From the IMG/VR virus record IMGVR_UViG_3300035704_000002, positions 32,001-96,000 of that record: a stretch of 64,000 nucleotides of DNA; one strand, 5' to 3'. The notes below the pieces were generated by a model that saw nothing but the letters and a program-made list of their open reading frames with translations, was not told where the DNA came from and did no database searches. The position numbers and the translations under genes were made by a program. Each line of letters starts with the position of its first letter. Positions within the stretch are counted from its first letter, which is position 1. Of the stretch, positions 2,705 to 28,755 are shown piece by piece. This stretch comes from a virus.

Positions 2705-2907
2705 CACGCCGACCGATCCACGCGCTGCCACGCCATCCCCAGCGCCGGCCCGACAAGGCAGGCCAGCCCGAAGCCGCCCAGACCCCAGTGCAGGCGCGCC
2801 GGATCGAGTGGGCCGGTACTCACGTAGCAGGCCAGGGCCAGGAGACCGGACACGTACACCAGCGTGCTCCACGCGACGACGCGGACACGGCGGTAAGCCA
2901 GACGCAT
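2704..2907 (-). CDS. Small two-TM membrane protein
   Basis: Two hydrophobic segments; coupled to the next gene. Confidence 0.5.
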   Translation of the reverse strand: MRLAYRRVRVVAWSTLVYVSGLLALACYVSTGPLDPARLHWGLGGFGLACLVGPALGMAWQRVDRSA

Positions 2908-2943
2908 TGGAATAATCCCCGAGTTCGTTGGTGTCAAAGACAA

Positions 2944-2980
2944 CGGCGCCCGGCCTCCGCGAAAGAGACCGGGCGCCGTC
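2944..2980. terminator. GC-rich hairpin
   Basis: acggcgcccgg...ccgggcgccgt stem downstream of the HTH gene. Confidence 0.6.
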
Positions 2981-2994
2981 TTCCTGTTGTTGTT

Positions 2995-3594
2995 CTACAC
3001 CGCCACCGCGTCAGGTTGCGGTGTGGCCGCCTTCTCGGCGCTCTGCCGGCGCGTGGTACGGCCACGTGGCGCACGCTCGCGCAGCCATACGCGCACCGCC
3101 GCGCCTTCGTGCACGACGAAGGGAACGCCGGAGTGGCCGTCCTCGTCGCGCTCGCGCAGCGCCACCGGCGGCGGGAAGTGCGCGTCACGCGCCTTCCAGC
3201 GGCGGATCGTCTGCTCGTGCACCCTGGCCAGCGCGGCGATCTCCACGACGGAGAGCAGGTCGCGCGCGGCGGCGTCCTCGGCGCTGACCTTGGGCAGCGG
3301 CGTGTAGGTGCCGCCCAGGTTCAGGTCGGTGGACGCGTTGCGCCGCTTCAGGCAGTCCTCGACCTGCGTGGTGCTGTAGTAGGGGTTGGTGCCGATGCGG
3401 GCCGCCGGCCGGGACAGCGCGCCCAACGGGTTGATGGCGGAGGTGATCGGCTCCCTGGACAGTAGGTCGGTGATCGTGGTCGGGCTGAACCCGGTCAGTT
3501 CCGATACCTGAGCCACGGTCAGATACGTCCGTGCGGTCTCCAGGTCGTCGTACAGGTCCGGGACGTTCGCGATCCACTGAGCCCTGGTGTTCAT
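2995..3594 (-). CDS. DNA-binding protein with two MerR/AlpA-like HTH domains
   Basis: YLTVAQVSELTGFSPTTI and LLSVVEIAALARVHEQTIRRW..FPPP; SD AGGAGG. Confidence 0.8.
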   Translation of the reverse strand: MNTRAQWIANVPDLYDDLETARTYLTVAQVSELTGFSPTTITDLLSREPITSAINPLGALSRPAARIGTNPYYSTTQVEDCLKRRNASTDLNLGGTYTPLPKVSAEDAAARDLLSVVEIAALARVHEQTIRRWKARDAHFPPPVALRERDEDGHSGVPFVVHEGAAVRVWLRERAPRGRTTRRQSAEKAATPQPDAVAV

Positions 3595-19192: not shown

Positions 19193-20800
19193 GTGGCGCA
19201 GCGGCGGTTCCTACCCGCGCTCCGGCGCATCTTCGCGCCCGCCCTGGAAAGCAAAGGTCTGCCCGAGCAGGTGCGCGCCAGTTCCCAGGCGTACCTCGTG
19301 CCTGGCGTCCCGTACTCGCAGAACTGGTCCACTCAGCGTGCCGTGCGCGAGGCGTACGAGCCGAATCCGCTGGTGTATCGGGCGATCGAGGTACTGGCCA
19401 CCAACGCGATCAGCCAGCGCATCGTGTTGCGCCAGGGTGACCCCGAGGAAGGCCCGATCATCGACACCGCGCACGACCCGACGCGGCTGCTCTACGTGTT
19501 CAACCGCCGCGCCAACCCGTGGGAGACCGCCAGGGTGTTCCGTCACCGGTTGGTGGCGCAGTGGCTACTGTCCTCACGCGGGCTGTTCGTGGAGATCATC
19601 CGCACACGCGGCGGCGGCATCGCCATGGTCAACCTGCTGGACCCCGACCTGGTCGACATGATCCCCGACCGGACCGACCCGATGCACGCCTTCCGGGTAC
19701 GCACCCCGAACTCCTCCACCGGATTCGACTACCTACCCCGCTTCGATCCGGCCAAGACCGCGCGCGAACAGCCCGCCTCCATCCTGTGGATGCGCAACCC
19801 GCACCCGACTGTGGCGTGGCAGGGCATGAGCCCGGTGCAGGCCGCCGGCCTGCCGATCGACCTGGATCGTTACGCCCGGCTCTACAACCGCCGATTTCTA
19901 CAGAACGACGGCCGGCCCGGCGGCCTGCTCTCGATCAAGGGTGTCGTGGCGCCGGCCACCATGGAGCTGATCCAGAGCCAGTTCATGGGCGGCCCCGACT
20001 CGGCCGGCCGTACCACCGTGATCAACGCCGACTCGGTGTCCTACGCGGACACCAGCGGCTCGCCCCGTGACACGCTCTGGGGCGACACGATGGACCGCAA
20101 CCGGCGCGAGATCTGCACCGCGTTCGGGGTGCCCGAGAGCGTGCTGGGCGACGCGTCCGGCCGCACCTTCTCCAACGCCGACGCCGAATACGCGATGTTC
20201 TGGGAACACCGCATGCTGCCGCTGGTGCGGGCGCTAGATGACCAACTCGACATCCTCACCGAGATCATGGGGCCGGATGTCTATTTGCGTCACGATGTGT
20301 CCAAGGTGTGGGTGCTGGGTCGCTACCAGCGCGAGCACGAGGACCGTCTGGCCGCCGACCAGCAGGCCGGCTACCGCACCATCGATGAGGTGCGGGTGGC
20401 CAAGGGCGAGAAGCCCCAGAACGTGCCCGCCACCCGCGTGCTGTGGATACCGCCGGGCAAGCTCGCCGTGGCCGACGCGAGTCGTCCGCACGACGCCGAG
20501 GAAGCCGCCGCCGCGCCGATCGGCGGCCCGGTCAACGCCGGCTCGGCCGGCTCCGGCGCCGCTCAGGCCGGCGTCAACCACCTGTCCGGCTCGGGCTACA
20601 GCGCCGGAGACACCGACTATCTGGGCAGCGGCAAGGGTGGCGGCGGCAACTCCGACCTGCGTTTGCTGTCCGGCTCCGGCGGCGGCCGGGCCGGTGGCGG
20701 CTTCGAGAACATGGGCGAGATCGACCCGGACGAACTGGAGGGTAAGCAGAGCGGCCCGCGACGCTGGGGCTCCCCCAGTGGAGCCCGCATCGCCGGTTAA
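19193..20800 (+). CDS. HK97-family portal protein
   Basis: VYRAI..LA, GMSPVQAA, FLQNDGRPGG, EICTAFGVP..LG..TFSNA, TIDEVR; SD GGAGG. Confidence 0.93.
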   Translation: MAQRRFLPALRRIFAPALESKGLPEQVRASSQAYLVPGVPYSQNWSTQRAVREAYEPNPLVYRAIEVLATNAISQRIVLRQGDPEEGPIIDTAHDPTRLLYVFNRRANPWETARVFRHRLVAQWLLSSRGLFVEIIRTRGGGIAMVNLLDPDLVDMIPDRTDPMHAFRVRTPNSSTGFDYLPRFDPAKTAREQPASILWMRNPHPTVAWQGMSPVQAAGLPIDLDRYARLYNRRFLQNDGRPGGLLSIKGVVAPATMELIQSQFMGGPDSAGRTTVINADSVSYADTSGSPRDTLWGDTMDRNRREICTAFGVPESVLGDASGRTFSNADAEYAMFWEHRMLPLVRALDDQLDILTEIMGPDVYLRHDVSKVWVLGRYQREHEDRLAADQQAGYRTIDEVRVAKGEKPQNVPATRVLWIPPGKLAVADASRPHDAEEAAAAPIGGPVNAGSAGSGAAQAGVNHLSGSGYSAGDTDYLGSGKGGGGNSDLRLLSGSGGGRAGGGFENMGEIDPDELEGKQSGPRRWGSPSGARIAG

Positions 20801-23261
20801 CGGCCAAGACCTGCCCGCCATCGCGCCCGCCGACATCACCACCACCGAAGCCCATCCCGCCCCGGCGCCCGGACCCGATCGGGAAGCGCTGGTGCTGGCC
20901 AGCCGGGCACGCATCGACGCCGCCCAGGCCACGATGACCGGCGCCCTGGATGGCTACCTGTCCCGGCTGGACGGCGTGGTCACCTCGCGCGTCAGGGGGC
21001 CGCGTGTGCGCAAGGGCACGCGCTGGTGGGGCGAGAACGCCAAGAGCCTGCACACGCCGATCTCGCTGGGCGGCGTGACCGGCCTGGAGACCAAGGCAGT
21101 GGACACCGGGTACGCGCTGCCGGACAAGCTGGTCGCCGAGGCGGCCGACGTGGCCCGCCCGATCGCGCAGCGAATCGCGCACGACGCCGCGCTGGCCACC
21201 GCCCGGTCGCTGAGTGTGCGTGTGCCCGGCGATCCGGCCGATATCTCGTTCGCGGTGGACCATGTCGCCCTGGAGCAGGCCGTGGATCGGGCCGTGAGCC
21301 GCGTCCAGGCGGTCGCCGACCACCACGCCACCCTGATCCGTGACGCCATCGGCCACGCCGACGCGCACGCCGAAACACTGGACGAACTGCTGGGCCAGGT
21401 GCAGGCCGCGCATGCCCAGGGCGCCGCCTGGGTGCGCATGGCCGGCCGCGCGGTGACCAACGGCCTGATCCAGGATGTGTCCACCGGGCAGGCGCGCGCC
21501 CTGGGCGTCACCCACGCGCAGTGGCTCTGCGTTGCGGCGGACACCAGGGTTTGGGCGCCAGGCGCGATCAATGTCGCTCAGCGATGGAGTGATGAGGGAC
21601 TACTTCGGATCGCGACAGCGCGGACGGTAGGCACCAGAAATATCCTGTCCGTCACCCCGGATCACCCGCTCCTGACTCAACGCGGTTGGATTTCGGCGCG
21701 CGAGATTCACCCAGGAGATCGACTCGTTCGCAGCGCCTTCGCCCAGAGGGAATCGGGGGGTAACCCACACATAGAGAATCTTCCAGCCAAGATCAGCGAG
21801 ACGTTCCGCGCGGCGGCGCAACTTCGCCCGACCGAGCGGATTATGCGCGTTGCGCCATACTTCGATAGCGACAGGCGCGGCAGCTATGTCGATGTTGTAC
21901 CGATCGACAGCGAGCTGCGGGACTGTCTGCAATCCGCGTTCCATGAGCCACGCGCTCAACTGCTGCTCACCCTCTCCGACCTTGACTTGGAGGGCTTGCT
22001 TGAGCTTCGCTCGTTCCGCCACCACGGCATCAGGTTGGCGTCGTCCAACGTTGAGTCCCGCCAGAAAAACGTTGCGCCCAGCAGTAATGTCGACAGCCTC
22101 ATGAGCGATACGGTTGAGACCAGCGGCCGAGTGGCTCCGCCAGGTGATGCCACGCTCCGTTACGATGAGCTTGATCATTTTGAGGGAAGTGTCGAATTCG
22201 ACCGCCAGTGCTCGCGCGGCACGCCCCGCGACGTATCCGGCGACGATGCCTTCCTTGTCCAGTACGCGACGGTTCCAGCGCAGCGCTTGCGCGGCCCTGG
22301 ACTGCTCGGTAGCTTCGGGGTGAGTCGCGAAGCGGATACGAACGGCTTGCTCGGGGGATCGCAGGACACCAATGTCGCGCAGCCTTCTCCTGATGGTTTC
22401 CGCGCTGACTCCCTCCAGAGTTTCCGCGATCTCGCGGGGCGATTCTCCGATTTGGTAACGCTGGACCAGGTTGTCGATGTCGAGTTCGATCCGACCCCTT
22501 GTCACGTGTACGACCTCCAGACGGAAACTGGCTGGTTCGTAGCCGATGGTTACGTCGTACACAATAGTCGCCGTGACGAACACGTGCGCCCCACCCACGT
22601 GCGGGCCGACGGCCAGGTGCGCGAACTGGGCGCGCCGTTCCGAGTGGGCACGGTCGACCTCGCCTATCCGTGCGATCCGGCCGGACTACCCGACACCTGG
22701 CCCGAGGTGGCCGGCTGCCGATGCGGCCTCCTGTTCCGCGCGCCGGCCGCCGACCACGCCCGCGCCCTGGGCACCCTGTCGACCACCCGGCCCAGCCGCG
22801 CTGGGCCGGGTGCGTTGGCCCTGCTGGCGGCCGTGGCGGCTGGGGGCATCGCGGTACACGAGGTGGCCGCGCCGTTGGGGGTGGCCGGTGGCCCGGACGG
22901 CGCGCCGCCACCATCCCGGCAAGTCGTGACCCACCAGTCGGTGGTCGGCTACCGCGCGCTGGAGCAGGAGCTGGCGGTGACGCCGGGGCAGTGGCTGCGC
23001 CTGCCCGGCCCGATCGTGCTGGGGTTGAGTGCGCCGAGCCTGTTCGCCGAGGGCGCGCCGGTGCTCTCGGTGCTGATTCCGGCTGGCGTCACGCTGACCG
23101 TGGCCGGCGGCCTGGCGGTACTGGCGGCCGGCACGGCGCTGGAAGTGCTCTCCAACGGTCCGACCGGCGTACAGGTGCAGGTCGCGGCACCGCAGGCGTC
23201 CTACTCGAAACCTACTCGAAACCTTGCCGCCACGGACGCGATCACCGCGCCGGCCACGTGA
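20778..23261 (+). CDS. MuF/gp7-like minor head protein containing an intein (start uncertain)
   Basis: Removing the intein restores QWL|SRRDEHVRPTH..ADGQ...CRC, the MuF motif. Confidence 0.85.
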   Translation: MEPASPVNGQDLPAIAPADITTTEAHPAPAPGPDREALVLASRARIDAAQATMTGALDGYLSRLDGVVTSRVRGPRVRKGTRWWGENAKSLHTPISLGGVTGLETKAVDTGYALPDKLVAEAADVARPIAQRIAHDAALATARSLSVRVPGDPADISFAVDHVALEQAVDRAVSRVQAVADHHATLIRDAIGHADAHAETLDELLGQVQAAHAQGAAWVRMAGRAVTNGLIQDVSTGQARALGVTHAQWLCVAADTRVWAPGAINVAQRWSDEGLLRIATARTVGTRNILSVTPDHPLLTQRGWISAREIHPGDRLVRSAFAQRESGGNPHIENLPAKISETFRAAAQLRPTERIMRVAPYFDSDRRGSYVDVVPIDSELRDCLQSAFHEPRAQLLLTLSDLDLEGLLELRSFRHHGIRLASSNVESRQKNVAPSSNVDSLMSDTVETSGRVAPPGDATLRYDELDHFEGSVEFDRQCSRGTPRDVSGDDAFLVQYATVPAQRLRGPGLLGSFGVSREADTNGLLGGSQDTNVAQPSPDGFRADSLQSFRDLAGRFSDLVTLDQVVDVEFDPTPCHVYDLQTETGWFVADGYVVHNSRRDEHVRPTHVRADGQVRELGAPFRVGTVDLAYPCDPAGLPDTWPEVAGCRCGLLFRAPAADHARALGTLSTTRPSRAGPGALALLAAVAAGGIAVHEVAAPLGVAGGPDGAPPPSRQVVTHQSVVGYRALEQELAVTPGQWLRLPGPIVLGLSAPSLFAEGAPVLSVLIPAGVTLTVAGGLAVLAAGTALEVLSNGPTGVQVQVAAPQASYSKPTRNLAATDAITAPAT
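21528..22565 (+). mobile_element. Intein 1 (346 aa), no recognisable in-frame nuclease
   Basis: Block A CVAADTRV, block B TPDHPLLT, block F VYDLQT, terminal HN followed by Ser. Confidence 0.93.
21600..22505 (-). CDS. HTH-repeat plus DUF559/Vsr-like endonuclease, antisense inside intein 1
   Basis: SD GGAGG 8 nt before GTG; YQIGESPREIAETLEGVSAETIRRRL HTH; E..L..L...PQLAVDRYNIDIA..VAIEV..H..R...L..LGWKILYVW. Confidence 0.85.
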   Translation of the reverse strand: MTRGRIELDIDNLVQRYQIGESPREIAETLEGVSAETIRRRLRDIGVLRSPEQAVRIRFATHPEATEQSRAAQALRWNRRVLDKEGIVAGYVAGRAARALAVEFDTSLKMIKLIVTERGITWRSHSAAGLNRIAHEAVDITAGRNVFLAGLNVGRRQPDAVVAERAKLKQALQVKVGEGEQQLSAWLMERGLQTVPQLAVDRYNIDIAAAPVAIEVWRNAHNPLGRAKLRRRAERLADLGWKILYVWVTPRFPLGEGAANESISWVNLARRNPTALSQERVIRGDGQDISGAYRPRCRDPK

Positions 23262-23565
23262 ACTGACCGGCCTCGTTGCCGTGCACGACCTTCTGCACCC
23301 AGTGGGTATCGGTGCCATCCAGCCACACCTGTCCGTTGACGGGCGTATCCGGGTCGATGGTGCGCGAGCCGTGCGGCAGCCCCCACAGCCGCACGATCAG
23401 CATCGGGAAGACCTGGCCCGGCGCCACGGCGTTGCCTCGGTGGATCAGTTCGCCGGCACCGTTGCGCGCCCGGCGCTGGTGCTCGATCTGGCGTATATCC
23501 TCGACGGTGAGTTGGTAGAGCACGAGTCGGGGCGGATTGGGCAGCGAAGCGTCCTGGGTTCCCAT
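23242..23565 (-). CDS. Conserved small phage protein
   Basis: GN...GQVFPMLIVRLW..VNGQVWLDGTD.HWV...FTWPAR pattern. Confidence 0.7.
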   Translation of the reverse strand: MGTQDASLPNPPRLVLYQLTVEDIRQIEHQRRARNGAGELIHRGNAVAPGQVFPMLIVRLWGLPHGSRTIDPDTPVNGQVWLDGTDTHWVQKVVHGNEAGQFTWPAR

Positions 23566-23671: not shown

Positions 23672-24955
23672 GTGGGAGCTGCACCCGAGGTCGCCGACCC
23701 GTGGTCATCCCTGCGTCACACGCTCGAACGCACCAACACCTGGTACACGATGGCGTCGGGACTGGTCAGCGGTGCGCGCAGCCTCTACGCGCACTGGCGG
23801 GAACACAGCACCTTCACCGTGTCGGTGTCCAGCGCCGATCCCGGCTACCAGGACGTGCACGACTGGCTCGTGAACGCCGTACCGCCGGCCCGGCGACGGG
23901 CGCTGATGGTGTGCTCCGGCCAGCCCTATGCCGACTCCTCCGACGCCGTGCCCGCGTCGGACTCGCCGCCGACCGCCAGCGCACCGGTGCGCCTGGCCTA
24001 CGACTCCGGCCACGAACAGACCGTGCTGGTGTCCGGCCGGGCGGTGCGGGTGGCGTTGGCGCGTGGCGAGGACGACAGCGCCGGCTCGGGCGGCATGCGA
24101 CGTGTCCCGCCGGACCGGATCGTGTTCCGATGCCCCAGCCAGGCGGCCCAGCAGGCCGTCATCGACCACCTGATCACGATCATCGGTGACCGTTCGAACC
24201 GGCGCCGGACACCCCAACTGCACGTGCTCTCCTCGTGGGGCGGCTGGACGCGCCGTTCCGACATCCCGCCGCGCAGCCTGGAATCGGTTGTGCTGCGTGC
24301 CGGCCAGATGGAGGAGTTGATCTCTGATCTGGGCGAGTTCCTGAGCGCCGAGACCGAGTACATCCGCAGGGGTCAGCCCTGGCACTACGGCTGCCTGCTG
24401 CAAGGTCCGCCCGGCACCGGCAAGACCAGCATCGTCAAGGCGCTGGCCAGCCACTTCGGCCTGGATCTGTGGCACGTGCCGCTCGGCGACCTCATCAGTG
24501 ACACCAGCCTGTCCACCCTGCTGGCGCAGGTGCATCCGCGTTCCATGCTGCTGCTGGAGGACGTGGACATCTACGCCGCCGCGACCAGCCGCAAGGCCGA
24601 GGCGGAACAGGTGTCGCTCTCGGGTCTGCTCAACGCGCTGGACGGGGTGATCACGCCACACGGCCTGATCATCGTACTGACCAGTAACGAGCCGGCATCC
24701 CTCGATCCCGCGCTGGTCCGGCCCGGCCGCATCGACCGGGTGGAGAACGTCGACCACCTCACCGACGAACAGGCACACCGGCTGTTCGTCACCTTCTACC
24801 AGCAGCCTGCGCGGCTGACCTGGACCATCGCGCCCGAGACCGCCAGCGCCGCCGTCATCGGCGTGTTCAAACACCACCTGCGCGACCCGGACGCGGCCGA
24901 GCGGGCGCTGTGCCGCGCACTGGCACACCAGCCTCCGCTCCCGGTACCGGTGTAG
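23672..24955 (+). CDS. BCS1-like AAA+ ATPase
   Basis: R.LESVVL, GPPGTGKTS, LLEDVD, SLSGLLNALDG, LDPALVRPGRID; SD AGGAG. Confidence 0.9.
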   Translation: MGAAPEVADPWSSLRHTLERTNTWYTMASGLVSGARSLYAHWREHSTFTVSVSSADPGYQDVHDWLVNAVPPARRRALMVCSGQPYADSSDAVPASDSPPTASAPVRLAYDSGHEQTVLVSGRAVRVALARGEDDSAGSGGMRRVPPDRIVFRCPSQAAQQAVIDHLITIIGDRSNRRRTPQLHVLSSWGGWTRRSDIPPRSLESVVLRAGQMEELISDLGEFLSAETEYIRRGQPWHYGCLLQGPPGTGKTSIVKALASHFGLDLWHVPLGDLISDTSLSTLLAQVHPRSMLLLEDVDIYAAATSRKAEAEQVSLSGLLNALDGVITPHGLIIVLTSNEPASLDPALVRPGRIDRVENVDHLTDEQAHRLFVTFYQQPARLTWTIAPETASAAVIGVFKHHLRDPDAAERALCRALAHQPPLPVPV

Positions 24956-25011
24956 CCCCGGATCACCCAGTCGGCGAGCCTGACCGAGAAACCCCGCCGC
25001 ACGCTGCCACG

Positions 25012-28000
25012 ATGTCGCGCGTGGCGAACCGAGACCCCGAAGCAGACGGCCCGCGCACCTCGGGCATGGTGGCGCTGATGCCCACGGCGGCCGATGCCCA
25101 ACGTCTCGCCGTGGACGGCGGCGAAGACCCCGACCAGTTGCACCTCACGCTGGCCTACCTCGGTGACAACGCCACCGGCCTGCCGCCGGAAACCCAGCAG
25201 GCACTCCATCAGGTGATGGGGCACCTGGCAGCCGAGACACCGCCGGTGGACGCCCGCGCCGCCGGGCATCTGCTGCTGAATCCCGACGGTGGCCCGGACG
25301 GTGACCGCACGCCCGTGGCGGCCTACCTGATGTCCGACTCCGACGCGCTCACCCCGCTGCACGAGGCGGCGAAGGCGGCGGCCGGCGCGGCCGACCCGGC
25401 CCTGACCCAGTTCTCGCCGTTCATCCCGCACGTGTCCGGCGCCTACGACCGCGACGCCGGAGCGCTGGGCTACGCCGGACCGGTCAGCTTCGACCGGATG
25501 CGGGTAGCGATCGGCGACGGGCACACCGACTACCCGCTGACCGGCCCGGCGTCCGGGGGCACCGATCCGGATGCCGACGGCGACATTGATGACGGCACCG
25601 GCGTGAACACCGACGACGACCCCACCGTGGGCGATGACGGCGCCAGGTCCGACAAGCCGGAGGGCAAGTCCGTGATCAGCCTGGCCGAGTTGGTGGAGCT
25701 GGCCGAACTGACCAACCTGGTGAGCGAAACCAAGGGCGACGCCCCCGACGGCGGCAACTCCGACGCGCCGCCCCACTCGATGCCCGACGGCAGCTACCAG
25801 ATCAACCATCCCGGCCAGCTCAAGCAGGCCATCAACGCGCTGACCGCCTACCAGGTCGCCAAGGGCAAGCGCGGGGCGCTGCGCAAGCATGTGATGAAGC
25901 ACGCCGCGCGATTGCACGCGCAGAACATGGTGCCACAGTCCATTCAGGACGAAGGCGACGACGACCCCGACGCCAAGAAGGACGCCGCGCCGGAGCCGGT
26001 CGAGACGAAGAACGTCGTGGCCACCCAGGCCGGCGTGGCCAGGTACGGCAAGCCGATCGGGACCGTGCTGGGCGCGCCGCGTGATGCCGCCGCCGCGCAG
26101 GCGCAGAAGGACACCGGCGCGGTCACCGCCTACCAGGATCTGCTCGCCGGTAACACGCGGAGCGTGGAACCGCTGAACACGATGGACCCCAGCAGCCTCG
26201 AAGCACTCACGCGCGTCGCCTACAGCTACAAATCCTCCGATCCGAAGGTCGTGGCACTGCGCGTGCAACTGGCCAACGAGCTGGCCAAACGCGGCCTGAA
26301 GGTCACCAGTTTCGGCGCCCTGGGCGGTGGCGGACCGACCAAGCCCGCCAGGGGCAAGGCGCCGGTCAAGCCGAAGGCGCCCGCGAAGCCGGCCCCGACT
26401 CCAGCGCAGGTTGCCGGCGCGCGCGGCGTGGCCGCGCCGCACGTCCAGGCCAAGGGTGATCTGGACGTCACGGAGGTGGAGTACAAGACGAAGTACACCG
26501 CTGATGACCGGCGCACCATGGCCAAGAAGGGGCAGGCGCTGCCGGATGGTTGCCTCTCTGGTGACACGTTGGTGGCAACTCGCAATGGCTCCGTCCGCAT
26601 TGACGCCCTCCCGTCTGAGTGCGAATTGCTAACTGATCACGGGTGGACGCAAGCTACTGTCTGCGGATTTGGAGTACAGAAACTGCGAGCTGTTGAACTG
26701 TTTGACGGTGTGCGAACCGAGATCGTCCACGCTACGTCAGGTCACAGATGGCTGATTGATGGTGGCGACTGGAGACTCACAGACGATCTGATCGTTGGCG
26801 ACCGCATTCCCCATGTTGATGTATCGAGCAATGATTTCAATGCCGACCTCGTCAACACGGCCCATCAGCGTATTGCACGTAAGGCAAAGCAGACCCCGCA
26901 CCATTCCAGTGCGATGGTCGTGATCAACCTGGAAGCCGGTCCATGTACGACCGGTACGAGTGTTGGCACGATTGATCTTCGGGATGCGATGACAGATAGC
27001 ACACAGGCCGCGCTGACTGGCAAGAAGTGCGTCGAACTCCGCTTGTCCAATGCTGTACTTGCGCCGCAGCATTCCATCTCGGCGACGCATCCAGCGCTCA
27101 TCGGCAACATCCACCCGTTCAGCGCTGGTGCGTGCTCTGTTTTGGCAGCAGAAACGGCAGTCGGTTCGCCGACGCTGATTGCGGATATAGAAATCGGTAT
27201 GCGGTCGTTCGGCGCCGCAGGTGCGGCAGGTGACAAAACCGACATAGCCGACTGGTACACCCTTGGCGTAAACGGACACGGTCATCCCACGAATGCTACC
27301 CGTTCGTGGGAGGTTGTGGGTATCAAAGCCACGCGCCGCATCGAGGAGGTTTTTTGCGCACTGGTTCCAGACTTGCACCGGTTTGTACTAGCCAGTGGCG
27401 TTTTGACCGGAAATAGTTATCCGATCATGGACCGGTCCGACCTGGACTCCGCGATCCGACTACGCGGACGGCACAGCGAATACTCCGCCGATACGGTCGT
27501 CAAGCACATCGTCAAACGCGCCAAGGCGATCGACGCCACCGACATGCTGCCCGACGGCATGGCCGCCGGGGTGCAGGAGAAGCAACTGTCCTGGGACGGC
27601 GCGCCGGACGCGTTCACGGCCGGCGTGCTGCTCGGCCTGTCCGGCCTGGACACCGACGAAGCGCTGGAGCTGAAGGCCGGCCCGCCGGGACACACCTTCG
27701 CCTCGCCCGACCCGAACGCCGCACGGCTGCGCCGGTACTGGGTGTTCGGCAAGGGACGCGCAAAGATCAACTGGGGTGTTCCGGGCGACTTCGACCGCTG
27801 CGTCGCGGAACTCACCAAGTACGTCGGCGACCGCGCCAAGGGCTTGTGCAACATCTACCACCGCTCCGCGCTCGGCGTCGCGCCCGGCCAGGAGGACAAG
27901 CCCGGCCACGCCGTCGCCAAGGCCGTGGGTGCCATGGTGGGTGCCAAGAAGTCCGAGGACGACGAGACCGAAACCAAGGCGCTGACCGCGTTGTGGGTAC

Positions 28001-28755
28001 GCGACCCGGCCGCCGTGGACGGGTGGCGTGCCTACGCGCCCGCGTGGCCACTGGATGACGACCTGATCGCGGAAATGAAAGCGTTGCGTCCCAACAAGCC
28101 CAGCGGTGGCTACGTCGGGGCCGACGACGAGGAGGACAGCCCCGACGGCAACGCGCCCGACGATACGAACAACACCGACTCGGGCACCGACGACGACGTA
28201 CTGTCCGCGCTGGACAACTATGCCGCCATGGCACCACAGATCAGCCCCGAAGACGCCTACATGCAGGCCATCGGCGACCAGATCCCCTGGCAACTGGCCG
28301 CCACCGGCGATCTGGTCAACCCCGACTCGCCCGGTGGTGAAGTGCCTGTGCTACAACGCGAGGAAGCGCGGTTCGGTGAGGCCGGACCGTCCGACGCGGC
28401 CGTGGACGACCTGTCCGGCACCGACGAGGTACCCGACGCCGACGACGCCGGGGCGGATGACGACCCCACCTTCCCCGATGACGGTGATCTGAGCTTCGAC
28501 CCGGACGATACGAACGAGACCGATGACGGCACGGATGGCCCGGATGACGGCGCCGGGGACACCGGCGACGGTTCGAACGAGAGCGACACCGGCGCCGCCA
28601 TTCCGGAGGTGGCCGAACTGCTGGCCGACCTGATGGCCGAACAGGACACGGTGGCCGCGCCGACGGATGACGACGATGCTGGCGAGCCGGAGGAAGACAG
28701 CACGGCGATCACTACCGCCCCGAAGCGCCAGGCCGCCGCCAGTGTTACCGCGTAA
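25012..28755 (+). CDS. Multidomain head-associated protein: 2H phosphoesterase, repeated modules, intein, acidic tail
   Basis: HLTL (25141) and PHVS (25429); two PDGSY.I modules; YW..GKG.AKI.W..PGDF.RC module. Confidence 0.8.
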   Translation: MSRVANRDPEADGPRTSGMVALMPTAADAQRLAVDGGEDPDQLHLTLAYLGDNATGLPPETQQALHQVMGHLAAETPPVDARAAGHLLLNPDGGPDGDRTPVAAYLMSDSDALTPLHEAAKAAAGAADPALTQFSPFIPHVSGAYDRDAGALGYAGPVSFDRMRVAIGDGHTDYPLTGPASGGTDPDADGDIDDGTGVNTDDDPTVGDDGARSDKPEGKSVISLAELVELAELTNLVSETKGDAPDGGNSDAPPHSMPDGSYQINHPGQLKQAINALTAYQVAKGKRGALRKHVMKHAARLHAQNMVPQSIQDEGDDDPDAKKDAAPEPVETKNVVATQAGVARYGKPIGTVLGAPRDAAAAQAQKDTGAVTAYQDLLAGNTRSVEPLNTMDPSSLEALTRVAYSYKSSDPKVVALRVQLANELAKRGLKVTSFGALGGGGPTKPARGKAPVKPKAPAKPAPTPAQVAGARGVAAPHVQAKGDLDVTEVEYKTKYTADDRRTMAKKGQALPDGCLSGDTLVATRNGSVRIDALPSECELLTDHGWTQATVCGFGVQKLRAVELFDGVRTEIVHATSGHRWLIDGGDWRLTDDLIVGDRIPHVDVSSNDFNADLVNTAHQRIARKAKQTPHHSSAMVVINLEAGPCTTGTSVGTIDLRDAMTDSTQAALTGKKCVELRLSNAVLAPQHSISATHPALIGNIHPFSAGACSVLAAETAVGSPTLIADIEIGMRSFGAAGAAGDKTDIADWYTLGVNGHGHPTNATRSWEVVGIKATRRIEEVFCALVPDLHRFVLASGVLTGNSYPIMDRSDLDSAIRLRGRHSEYSADTVVKHIVKRAKAIDATDMLPDGMAAGVQEKQLSWDGAPDAFTAGVLLGLSGLDTDEALELKAGPPGHTFASPDPNAARLRRYWVFGKGRAKINWGVPGDFDRCVAELTKYVGDRAKGLCNIYHRSALGVAPGQEDKPGHAVAKAVGAMVGAKKSEDDETETKALTALWVRDPAAVDGWRAYAPAWPLDDDLIAEMKALRPNKPSGGYVGADDEEDSPDGNAPDDTNNTDSGTDDDVLSALDNYAAMAPQISPEDAYMQAIGDQIPWQLAATGDLVNPDSPGGEVPVLQREEARFGEAGPSDAAVDDLSGTDEVPDADDAGADDDPTFPDDGDLSFDPDDTNETDDGTDGPDDGAGDTGDGSNESDTGAAIPEVAELLADLMAEQDTVAAPTDDDDAGEPEEDSTAITTAPKRQAAASVTA
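26551..27414 (+). mobile_element. Intein 2 (288 aa), no recognisable in-frame nuclease
   Basis: CLSGDTLV, ATSGHRW, EEVFCALVP..HRFVL, terminal GN followed by Ser; excision restores PDG|SYPI, matching the uninterrupted PDGSYQI copy. Confidence 0.92.
26737..27285 (-). CDS. Endonuclease VII-family nuclease, antisense inside intein 2
   Basis: CRTC..F..CRFC; RKYSI...FDALL..QRGLCAIC; VDHDH.TG.VRGLLC..CN..MG. Confidence 0.92.
   Translation of the reverse strand: MTVSVYAKGVPVGYVGFVTCRTCGAERPHTDFYIRNQRRRTDCRFCCQNRARTSAERVDVADERWMRRRDGMLRRKYSIGQAEFDALLASQRGLCAICHRIPKINRANTRTGRTWTGFQVDHDHRTGMVRGLLCLTCNTLMGRVDEVGIEIIARYINMGNAVANDQIVCESPVATINQPSVT

Follow-up and report, generated by a model that had tools for sequence, protein, structure and literature searches.

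The soil virus record IMGVR_UViG_3300035704_000002 of IMG/VR is 128,202 bp long, with 67% G+C and direct terminal repeats, and the window analyzed here is the 64,000-nucleotide stretch that forms bases 32001-96000 of that record. On the + strand of the window, positions 20238-23261 are a single long open frame, the relevant part of which encodes a MuF-like head-morphogenesis protein and lies downstream of the portal gene. This gene carries an intein of 346 residues, and on the opposite strand inside the intein is an open reading frame (ORF) for a protein of 301 residues with two helix-turn-helix (HTH) units and a Vsr-like nuclease domain. We think it likely that this antisense ORF is a real gene for a homing-type nuclease, housed in an intein that is itself read through, and that it would be expressed and would act in homing. 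The features of the locus are as follows.

20907..21527, + strand: N-extein of the MuF-like head-morphogenesis gene, in the frame open from 20238, with PHROG matches, ending at the junction ...AQWL
21528..22565, + strand: intein of 346 residues, with Cys1, block B T43xxH46 and terminal His345-Asn346; the +1 Ser is at 22566
21528..21737, + strand: N-terminal half of the Hint domain (Hint-N), intein residues 1-70, with block B TPDH at 21654-21665 (AlphaFold2, wobble test and hidden Markov model, HMM)
21921..22409, + strand: sense "linker," intein residues 132-294, the mirror of nuclease codons, predicted to be unstructured and translated within the precursor
22455..22565, + strand: C-terminal half of the Hint domain (Hint-C), residues 310-346, with blocks F and G (AlphaFold2 strands from residue 310; HMM)
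22566..23261, + strand: C-extein of the MuF-like gene (SRRDEHVRPTH...GCRCGLLF...), identified by tblastn of its first 78 residues
21600..22505, - strand: antisense gene for the 301-residue protein P0001 (two HTH units plus a nuclease domain of the Vsr-like kind); stop TAG at 21600-21602
22371..22478, - strand: HTH unit 1, nuclease residues 10-45 (AlphaFold2; Pfam HTH_23 at 14-43)
22155..22256, - strand: HTH unit 2, nuclease residues 84-117 (AlphaFold2 helices 84-92, 97-103, and 108-117; Pfam HTH_58 at 86-125; structure 2lvs_A)
21636..21986, - strand: Vsr-like PD-(D/E)xK nuclease domain, residues 174-290, with E180 (21966-21968), N204, D206 (21888-21890), and E215 (21861-21863)
22503..22505, - strand: GTG start, opposite the block-F codon CAC (His326) and its reverse complement
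22514..22518, - strand: Shine-Dalgarno sequence GGAGG with an 8-nt spacer to the start, formed opposite the block-F Asp-Leu-Gln codons
22561..22566, - strand: candidate, speculative -10 hexamer TATTGT (of the form TAnnnT), 56-61 nt before the start, across the His345-Asn346 and Ser+1 codons

The exteins match PHROG head, portal, head-morphogenesis, and portal-fusion families, and a tblastn search with the first 78 residues of the C-extein matched 571 phage records, in genes for MuF, capsid-maturation, and portal-fusion proteins. Relatives of the exteins are mostly encoded by Mycobacterium, Microbacterium, and Gordonia phages; the record, at 128,202 bp, is large for a phage with head genes like those of 50-90 kb actinophages. 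Among sequencing runs, the stretch is present in one soil-metagenome DNA run, which may be its source, and small shares of it occur in two others; no RNA run containing it was found. The intein opens with its nucleophile, a Cys at 21528-21530 directly after ...AQWL, and ends in ...VVHN followed by Ser (22560-22568), and the host junction after excision would be ...AQWL/SRRDEH..., where the slash marks the point of joining. An N-terminal Cys, a block B TxxH, and a terminal His-Asn with Ser at +1 are all present, as expected of a class-1 intein, and residues C1, T43, H46, and N346 are invariant among 50 related inteins. The match to Pfam Intein_splicing (PF14890) falls short of the curated threshold (31.3 bits vs. 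a cut-off of 35.8; E 2.1e-7), the long insert splitting the match; nevertheless, because the catalytic motifs are all present, we file the element as an intein. We infer that the protein is spliced from these intact motifs and from the need of a head-morphogenesis gene for a working product.

The antisense ORF at 21600..22505 (-) is a stop-free translation of 301 residues from a GTG start. A longer reading of 332 residues from a GTG at 22598 exists and was rejected, as the start in relatives is homologous to 22505. An earlier sequence-only reading of the window had placed a 301-residue ORF wholly within the intein, with a GGAGG formed by the mirror of block-F codons 8 nt ahead of its GTG and with its 3' end overlapping block B (TPDHPLL), and each of these assignments, including the exact coordinates, was confirmed on the sequence. 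The two frames are codon-for-codon in register, such that the first position of an antisense codon falls on the third of a sense codon and the second positions are shared, and a stop in one strand can therefore match only TTA, CTA, or TCA in the other. The case for a real gene rests on comparative data, because an open mirror frame of 301 codons in a 67% G+C window with the local codon usage is not improbable by chance (P about 0.25-0.5).

For this comparison we examined 91 loci, comprising the best 80 of at least 498 loci in IMG/VR, six GenBank phages, and five GTDB genome contigs. The antisense, same-register arrangement inside a longer opposite-strand ORF was found in all of them (80/80, 6/6, and 5/5, respectively), and the nuclease gene was outside an intein in none of the 91. 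Stops or frameshifts in homologues, which the sequence-only reading had named as observations that would count against it, were looked for in the same loci; the antisense frame was open in 91/91 and the sense frame was also open across the intein in 91/91. A large MAFFT alignment of the sense segments was too gappy and small Hint-N and Hint-C HMMs were used instead, giving Hint-N matches in 80/80 and Hint-C matches in 78/80 of the IMG/VR loci. The family is large: phmmer against 1.84 billion representatives returned 1451 cluster representatives at E<=1e-3 (716 at E<=1e-10), an alignment-based IMG/VR scan gave the at least 498 confirmed loci, and 63 GenBank phage records were matched by the antisense product in a tblastn search. 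A megablast of 20900-23300 against GenBank phages gave no match.

The six GenBank phages that were opened are Gordonia phages Fosterous and Vivi2, Mycobacterium phage Sejanus, Salmonella phages BPS11Q3 and PK2, and Pseudomonas phage vB_Pae_BR313c. In each the homologue lies antisense to, and in the same register as, a coding sequence annotated as MuF, head-morphogenesis, or capsid protease, and the antisense ORF is itself annotated in only one of the six (PK2), as a hypothetical protein. The five GTDB contigs are labeled Anaerolineae, Mycobacterium, Bacteroidales, Firmicutes, and Gammaproteobacteria, and the family was also found in phages or prophage-like contigs of Salmonella, Shigella, Escherichia, Pseudomonas, Bacteroidales, Firmicutes, Anaerolineae, and Gammaproteobacteria.

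In phages of 43-60% G+C a mirror frame of this kind would stay open by chance with a probability of 0.00015-0.049 per locus. The open antisense frame had P<0.05 in 16 of 49 loci, with a summed log10 P of -60.4, and it is selected in the lower-GC phages. The codons TTA, CTA, and TCA occur 34 times in the nuclease gene vs. 147.8 expected, a count made on stop-to-stop frames that extend partly beyond the overlap. Compared with Gordonia phage Vivi2, the window gives E 2e-44 in the antisense frame vs. E 2e-20 for the whole sense intein.

To determine which frame is under selection, 52 non-identical inteins were aligned codon by codon and the information at each codon position was calculated in 10-codon bins. 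At both Hint ends sense position 3 is the least conserved. Across nuclease residues 71-260 the least conserved is antisense position 3 in every scored bin except 221-230 and 241-250, which have no clear frame difference, while for residues 51-70 the sequences were too few for scoring. Synonymous changes were also counted in three disjoint pairs of 11-28% divergence, as changes synonymous in the nuclease frame only or in the sense frame only:

Hint-C only: nuclease-frame only 1, sense-frame only 13
Block-F overlap: nuclease-frame only 4, sense-frame only 9
Nuclease 19-80: nuclease-frame only 17, sense-frame only 8
Nuclease 81-175: nuclease-frame only 82, sense-frame only 6
Nuclease 176-250: nuclease-frame only 37, sense-frame only 11
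Block-B overlap: nuclease-frame only 13, sense-frame only 17
Hint-N only: nuclease-frame only 5, sense-frame only 26

The same frame switch is repeated in the pairs Fosterous/Vivi2 and BPS11Q3/PK2. These patterns show a conserved nuclease gene on which purifying selection acts in the antisense frame.

The predicted structures of the two products, a comparison that the sequence-only reading had proposed as a check, differ in the same direction. With a 40-row alignment AlphaFold2 predicted the antisense product at a mean predicted local distance difference test score (pLDDT) of 92.1, as two three-helix HTH units, a helical linker, and an alpha/beta domain; the sense intein, run as a control with a 50-row alignment, had a mean of 63.7. 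Its confident parts are the two Hint halves, with block means of 82-98 for residues 1-70 (above 90 for most of them) and 95-97 for residues 311-346, and pLDDT was below 50 at residues 132-140, 142-144, and 172-294. The middle of the sense-frame intein also had no Pfam match. We assign the folded middle domain to the antisense strand because of this difference (92.1 vs. below 50 in the sense middle). Sense residues 81-130 (21768-21917, +), which lie opposite the nuclease catalytic strands, have a recurrent motif DFHGDG..G.VDVV..D..LR with an invariant L130; this may be a genuine additional part of the Hint domain, constrained on both strands, or it may only mirror YNID and VAVE, motifs of the nuclease.

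The antisense product is predicted to have the alpha/beta fold of Vsr-type nucleases, and that of the catalytic domain of I-Bth0305I. The nuclease motif noted from the window alone is real, in that E180 (helix 180-189), N204, D206 (strand 203-209), and E215 (strand 212-217) are invariant in an alignment of 40 family sequences and all four are present in the window copy. Likewise, the two suspected HTH repeats correspond to the predicted units at residues 10-45 and 84-117, and the family profile matched the tandem-HTH structure 2lvs_A with E 3.4e-10. Of the label HTH-DUF559/Vsr-like, the Vsr-type nuclease stands, and DUF559 is slightly loose for this copy, whose best Pfam nuclease match is REase_MTES_1575 (24.9 bits vs. 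a cut-off of 38.2). Among 40 relatives REase_MTES_1575 was matched by 27 at E<=0.01 (best 7.8e-11) and DUF559 by seven at the same threshold. The family profile also matched the structure 3hrl_A with E 4.2e-4. These matches place the nuclease as a divergent branch of the Vsr/DUF559/REase_MTES_1575 group rather than a core member.

The ends of the nuclease gene are written in the mirror of conserved splicing codons. The CCTCC at 22514-22518 that is read as GGAGG on the - strand consists of the third base of Asp, the Leu codon CTC, and the first base of Gln in the sequence V-Y-D-L-Q. In 57 of 67 non-redundant loci the mirror of the His in the block-F motif GHVY(N/D)L(Q/E) is a start codon (ATG in 43 and GTG in 14), and in 52 of these 57 an SD-like motif lies 7-11 nt upstream of the start. 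The intein codons at these positions are biased: the block-F His is CAT in 40/54 loci vs. 361/1034 (35%) elsewhere in the same ORFs (P 1.7e-8), and the block-F Leu is CTC in 44/54 loci vs. a background of 1157/3597 (32%; P 1.8e-13), these P values being optimistic because the Fisher tests count homologous loci as independent and so overstate significance. The choice among synonymous intein codons thus keeps the nuclease translation signals where they are, and it backs the dual coding of block F (start and SD) and block B (C-terminal strand) proposed in the sequence-only reading, which is confirmed. At the other end, the 3' part of the ORF spans sense residues 25-76, including block B (T43-P-D-H46, 21654-21665), and the C-terminal motif GQYRVIRG (in the window ERVIRG/RVIRG, predicted strand 279-283) is the codon mirror of the block B sequence TPNHPVLT (in the window TPDHPLL). 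Within the block-B overlap the sense-frame pattern is dominant, yet both positions are conserved.

A similar relation may extend to transcription. In 22 of 53 non-redundant loci there is a match to TATAAT at five or more of its six positions at -51..-46 from the nuclease start, 12 of these being perfect, and 24 hexamers at this place have the form TAnnnT, 11 with an upstream TGn. The TATAAT-like box lies opposite a pair of block-G codons, mostly Ile-Ile, in which ATA and ATT are enriched (P 1e-6 and 3e-8, again optimistic because related loci were counted as independent). It is 5-10 nt closer to the start than the speculative TATTGT of the window. Several other loci have a TACAAT shifted by 3 nt.

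With regard to mobility, the five nearest IMG/VR relatives of the MuF gene (41-49% identity in the N-extein) all are without an intein at the site used in the window. We regard these as empty alleles because the junction runs directly into the sequence (S/T/C)K(R/I)D..VR..H. One of these five (L091, IMGVR_UViG_3300021510_000001, 2867-3110) has an intein of the same family (CFVAGTE...) at ...NC/RC... and an empty WL/S site, and therefore the family uses at least two MuF insertion sites. NC/RC is the commoner insertion site among the 80 IMG/VR loci; in the window it is empty (GCRCGLLF). The intein has 62% G+C vs. 74-75% for the exteins, in which G+C at the third codon position is 86-92%. Inside the intein G+C is flat over codon positions (about 0.65-0.70 at positions 1 and 3), and does not separate the frames there. 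This island of lower G+C suggests a recent arrival from a less G+C-rich phage, and the empty alleles together with the G+C contrast fit recent acquisition by homing.

These observations lead us to propose the following mechanism. On the sense strand a ribosome would read through to give a precursor in which the Hint halves are joined by about 160-230 unstructured mirror residues, and from which the intein would excise itself. On the antisense strand a separate transcript, driven by an antisense promoter that would lie within or close to block G or the C-extein, would be translated from the GTG with the help of the GGAGG made of block-F codons. The predicted product, 301 residues long, combines a pair of DNA-binding HTH units with a PD-(D/E)xK nuclease of the Vsr-like type, the last beta-strand of which is the mirror of block B. 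During co-infection the nuclease would cut intein-free MuF alleles near the WL/S junction, and repair would then copy intein and nuclease together.

Several observations weigh against this proposal and have to be set beside the evidence for it. Two initial searches found no family at all: a word-indexed protein search with P0001 gave nothing at E<=1e-3, and a single-protein scan of IMG/VR gave 11 pattern matches of which none was confirmed; these were superseded by the full HMMER scan and the alignment-based scan, respectively. Every Pfam match of P0001 itself, including HTH_23 (14-43) and HTH_58 (86-125), is under its curated cut-off, and Foldseek E values for Vsr and I-Bth0305I are only 0.017-0.02. 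The wobble pattern is mixed across nuclease residues 1-50, and between Fosterous and Vivi2 the changes in the first ~80 nuclease codons are mostly sense-synonymous (7/10 and 6/6). The block-F His is absent in 10 of the 67 loci, where the start is elsewhere. In the window copy there is no TATAAT box, the sequence at that place being GACGTA, and a scan of 21300-23300 for promoters, limited to the sigma-70 consensus, and for terminators found zero promoter-like and zero terminator-like sites. Finally, AlphaFold2 was moderately confident for sense residues 81-130 (block means 59-94), and part of the sense "linker" may be structured or may borrow its signal from the constraint on the nuclease.

The last of these points bears on the explanation that the antisense ORF is a non-functional shadow frame, the conservation of which merely reflects selection on an intein domain encoded by the sense strand. 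The recurrence of DFHGDG..G.VDVV in residues 81-130 is consistent with such a domain, the two frames are codon mirrors so that conservation of one partly carries over to the other, and by chance alone a frame as long as that in the window is unremarkable. However, a shadow would not be expected to vary at its own third positions, as the middle of the nuclease does (82 vs. 6 and 37 vs. 11 changes), nor to be predicted at a pLDDT of 92.1 while its sense counterpart (residues 172-294) is below 50, nor to match HTH and nuclease families where the sense middle matches none. The frame is moreover open in phages of 43-60% G+C, where chance would seldom leave it so. We therefore consider this explanation largely refuted and very improbable. 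Still less credible, and rejected here, is the idea that the sense strand is not read through and that the MuF gene is a fractured gene with a split intein around an opposite-strand endonuclease gene. It has a precedent in the Vsr-like endonuclease genes that sit between split-intein halves, but in the loci described by Dassa et al. (2009; PMC2677866) the endonucleases share the orientation of the host gene. In the window and in 91/91 loci the sense frame is open across the intein, and the nuclease gene avoids TTA, CTA, and TCA (34 vs. 147.8 expected). Translation is the only sensible reason for maintaining the sense frame in this way, and we conclude that it is translated through.

A more serious rival, although still an unlikely one, is that the gene is expressed and is not, or is no longer, a homing enzyme, being instead a domesticated regulator, an exclusion nuclease, or a decaying passenger that invaded as a free-standing gene. 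Half of the protein consists of HTH DNA-binding domains, and the window has VAIEVWRNAH where several relatives have VAVE..GG.WH. In addition, a preprint on anti-sense endonucleases in phage inteins (Gosselin, Arsenault, and Gogarten, bioRxiv 10.1101/2025.01.02.630785, version of 20 October 2025; hereafter Gosselin et al., 2025) describes most of its VSR-like intein groups as apparently inherited vertically, with horizontal transfer suggested for two clusters only. Against this, the window copy keeps all four residues that are invariant in the family, purifying selection in the antisense frame acts on the core of the nuclease, and the insertion site is empty in 5/5 relatives. That the gene was never outside an intein in 91 loci fits partnership with the intein better than independent function. 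The closest characterized structural relative besides Vsr is a bona fide homing endonuclease that cuts beside its own insertion site (PMC3239194). A homing-type nuclease gene in a read-through intein thus remains the reading that we favor.

It is feasible to go further and to regard the nuclease family as an obligate and ancient antisense partner of one intein lineage, rather than an occasional invader, with its expression cassette hard-wired into conserved intein codons and the composite spread across phages of Actinobacteria, Proteobacteria, Bacteroidota, Firmicutes, and Chloroflexi; our opinion on this broader proposal is evenly divided. If it is true, the -10 box would come from block-G Ile-Ile-x-His-Asn, the SD from block-F Asn/Asp-Leu-Gln, and the start from the block-F His, so that every base there would be under mutual constraint from the chemistry of splicing and the expression of the nuclease. 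Head-morphogenesis genes would then house copies numbering hundreds to thousands, mostly unannotated.

The locus has implications for annotation, as the nuclease gene has been overlooked in nearly every record and the family is large. For intein biology it indicates that a homing endonuclease need not belong to the intein polypeptide and that splicing must tolerate a long unstructured mirror insert. It also offers a clean example from nature of dual coding on opposite strands, in which the wobble switch can be measured and signals on the other strand impose synonymous constraints. In practical terms, the family could be a source of new nucleases for long sites, built of a tandem HTH and a Vsr core, and the intein itself appears to tolerate inserts of 200 residues.

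Two further observations concern endonuclease VII-like genes. A second, unrelated intein (CLSGDT...VLTGN/S) is present in the window in an ORF at 24910..28755 (+), and opposite it is an antisense ORF at 26737-27378 (-) of 213 residues that scores 62 bits for Pfam Endonuclease_7, over the cut-off of 23.6 (E 5.2e-17). The preprint's main text places endonuclease VII-like intein genes only in "frame 3," on the same strand (Gosselin et al., 2025), and the antisense Endonuclease_7 ORF may be a further variant. By tblastn a Vsr-like antisense ORF was also found in the MuF genes of phages Affeca (MH976506.1) and Angelicage (MH651166.1), and the same preprint names "Angelicase, Affeca..." as an endonuclease VII-like intein cluster, reflecting either two different non-canonical inteins or differing labels.

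Among known systems, Vsr of E. coli is a free-standing repair nickase without HTH repeats, whereas the protein in the window carries HTH repeats and sits in an intein. I-Bth0305I and the other EDxHD enzymes, as they are described in PMC2677866 and PMC3239194, are encoded in the orientation of the host gene, in group I introns or between split-intein halves, and differ in this from the antisense enzyme of the window. The I-Bth0305I structure 3r3p was not among the 39 matches of the family profile at E<=10. The invariants of the window family are E...YNID...VAVE, and the EDxHD family takes its name from the motif EDxHD. Similar in arrangement are the anti-sense LAGLIDADG endonucleases of inteins in dnaX, SpoVR-like, and minor capsid genes, which the preprint reports with reference to Gorbalenya (1998) and Gogarten et al. 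(2002); there too an endonuclease ORF lies opposite a read-through intein, and the nuclease fold and the host genes are different.

Closest of all are the anti-sense VSR-like endonucleases in the minor-capsid inteins of actinophages (Gosselin et al., 2025), with which the window shares an antisense endonuclease ORF in a contiguous, read-through intein and a MuF-like host protein. The antisense arrangement has therefore already been described in kind, and the window is a further member; as the core discovery is already public in the preprint, of which no journal version was found in the literature search, what the window adds is mainly that member, breadth, and detail of the dual coding. The survey in the preprint covers PhagesDB only and calls the architecture rare, whereas here the same family is present in at least 498 IMG/VR loci and in phages beyond the actinophages. 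The ORF in the window also overlaps blocks B and F, and the main text of the preprint has no mention of a "start codon," of "ribosome binding," or of "block B" or "block F." Beyond that text, the present analysis shows how large the family is and how broad its range of hosts, that the codons of the two frames mirror each other in strict register, and, as evidence of dual coding, that the start codon, the SD, often a -10 box, and the last beta-strand of the nuclease are formed opposite the codons of blocks F, G, and B.

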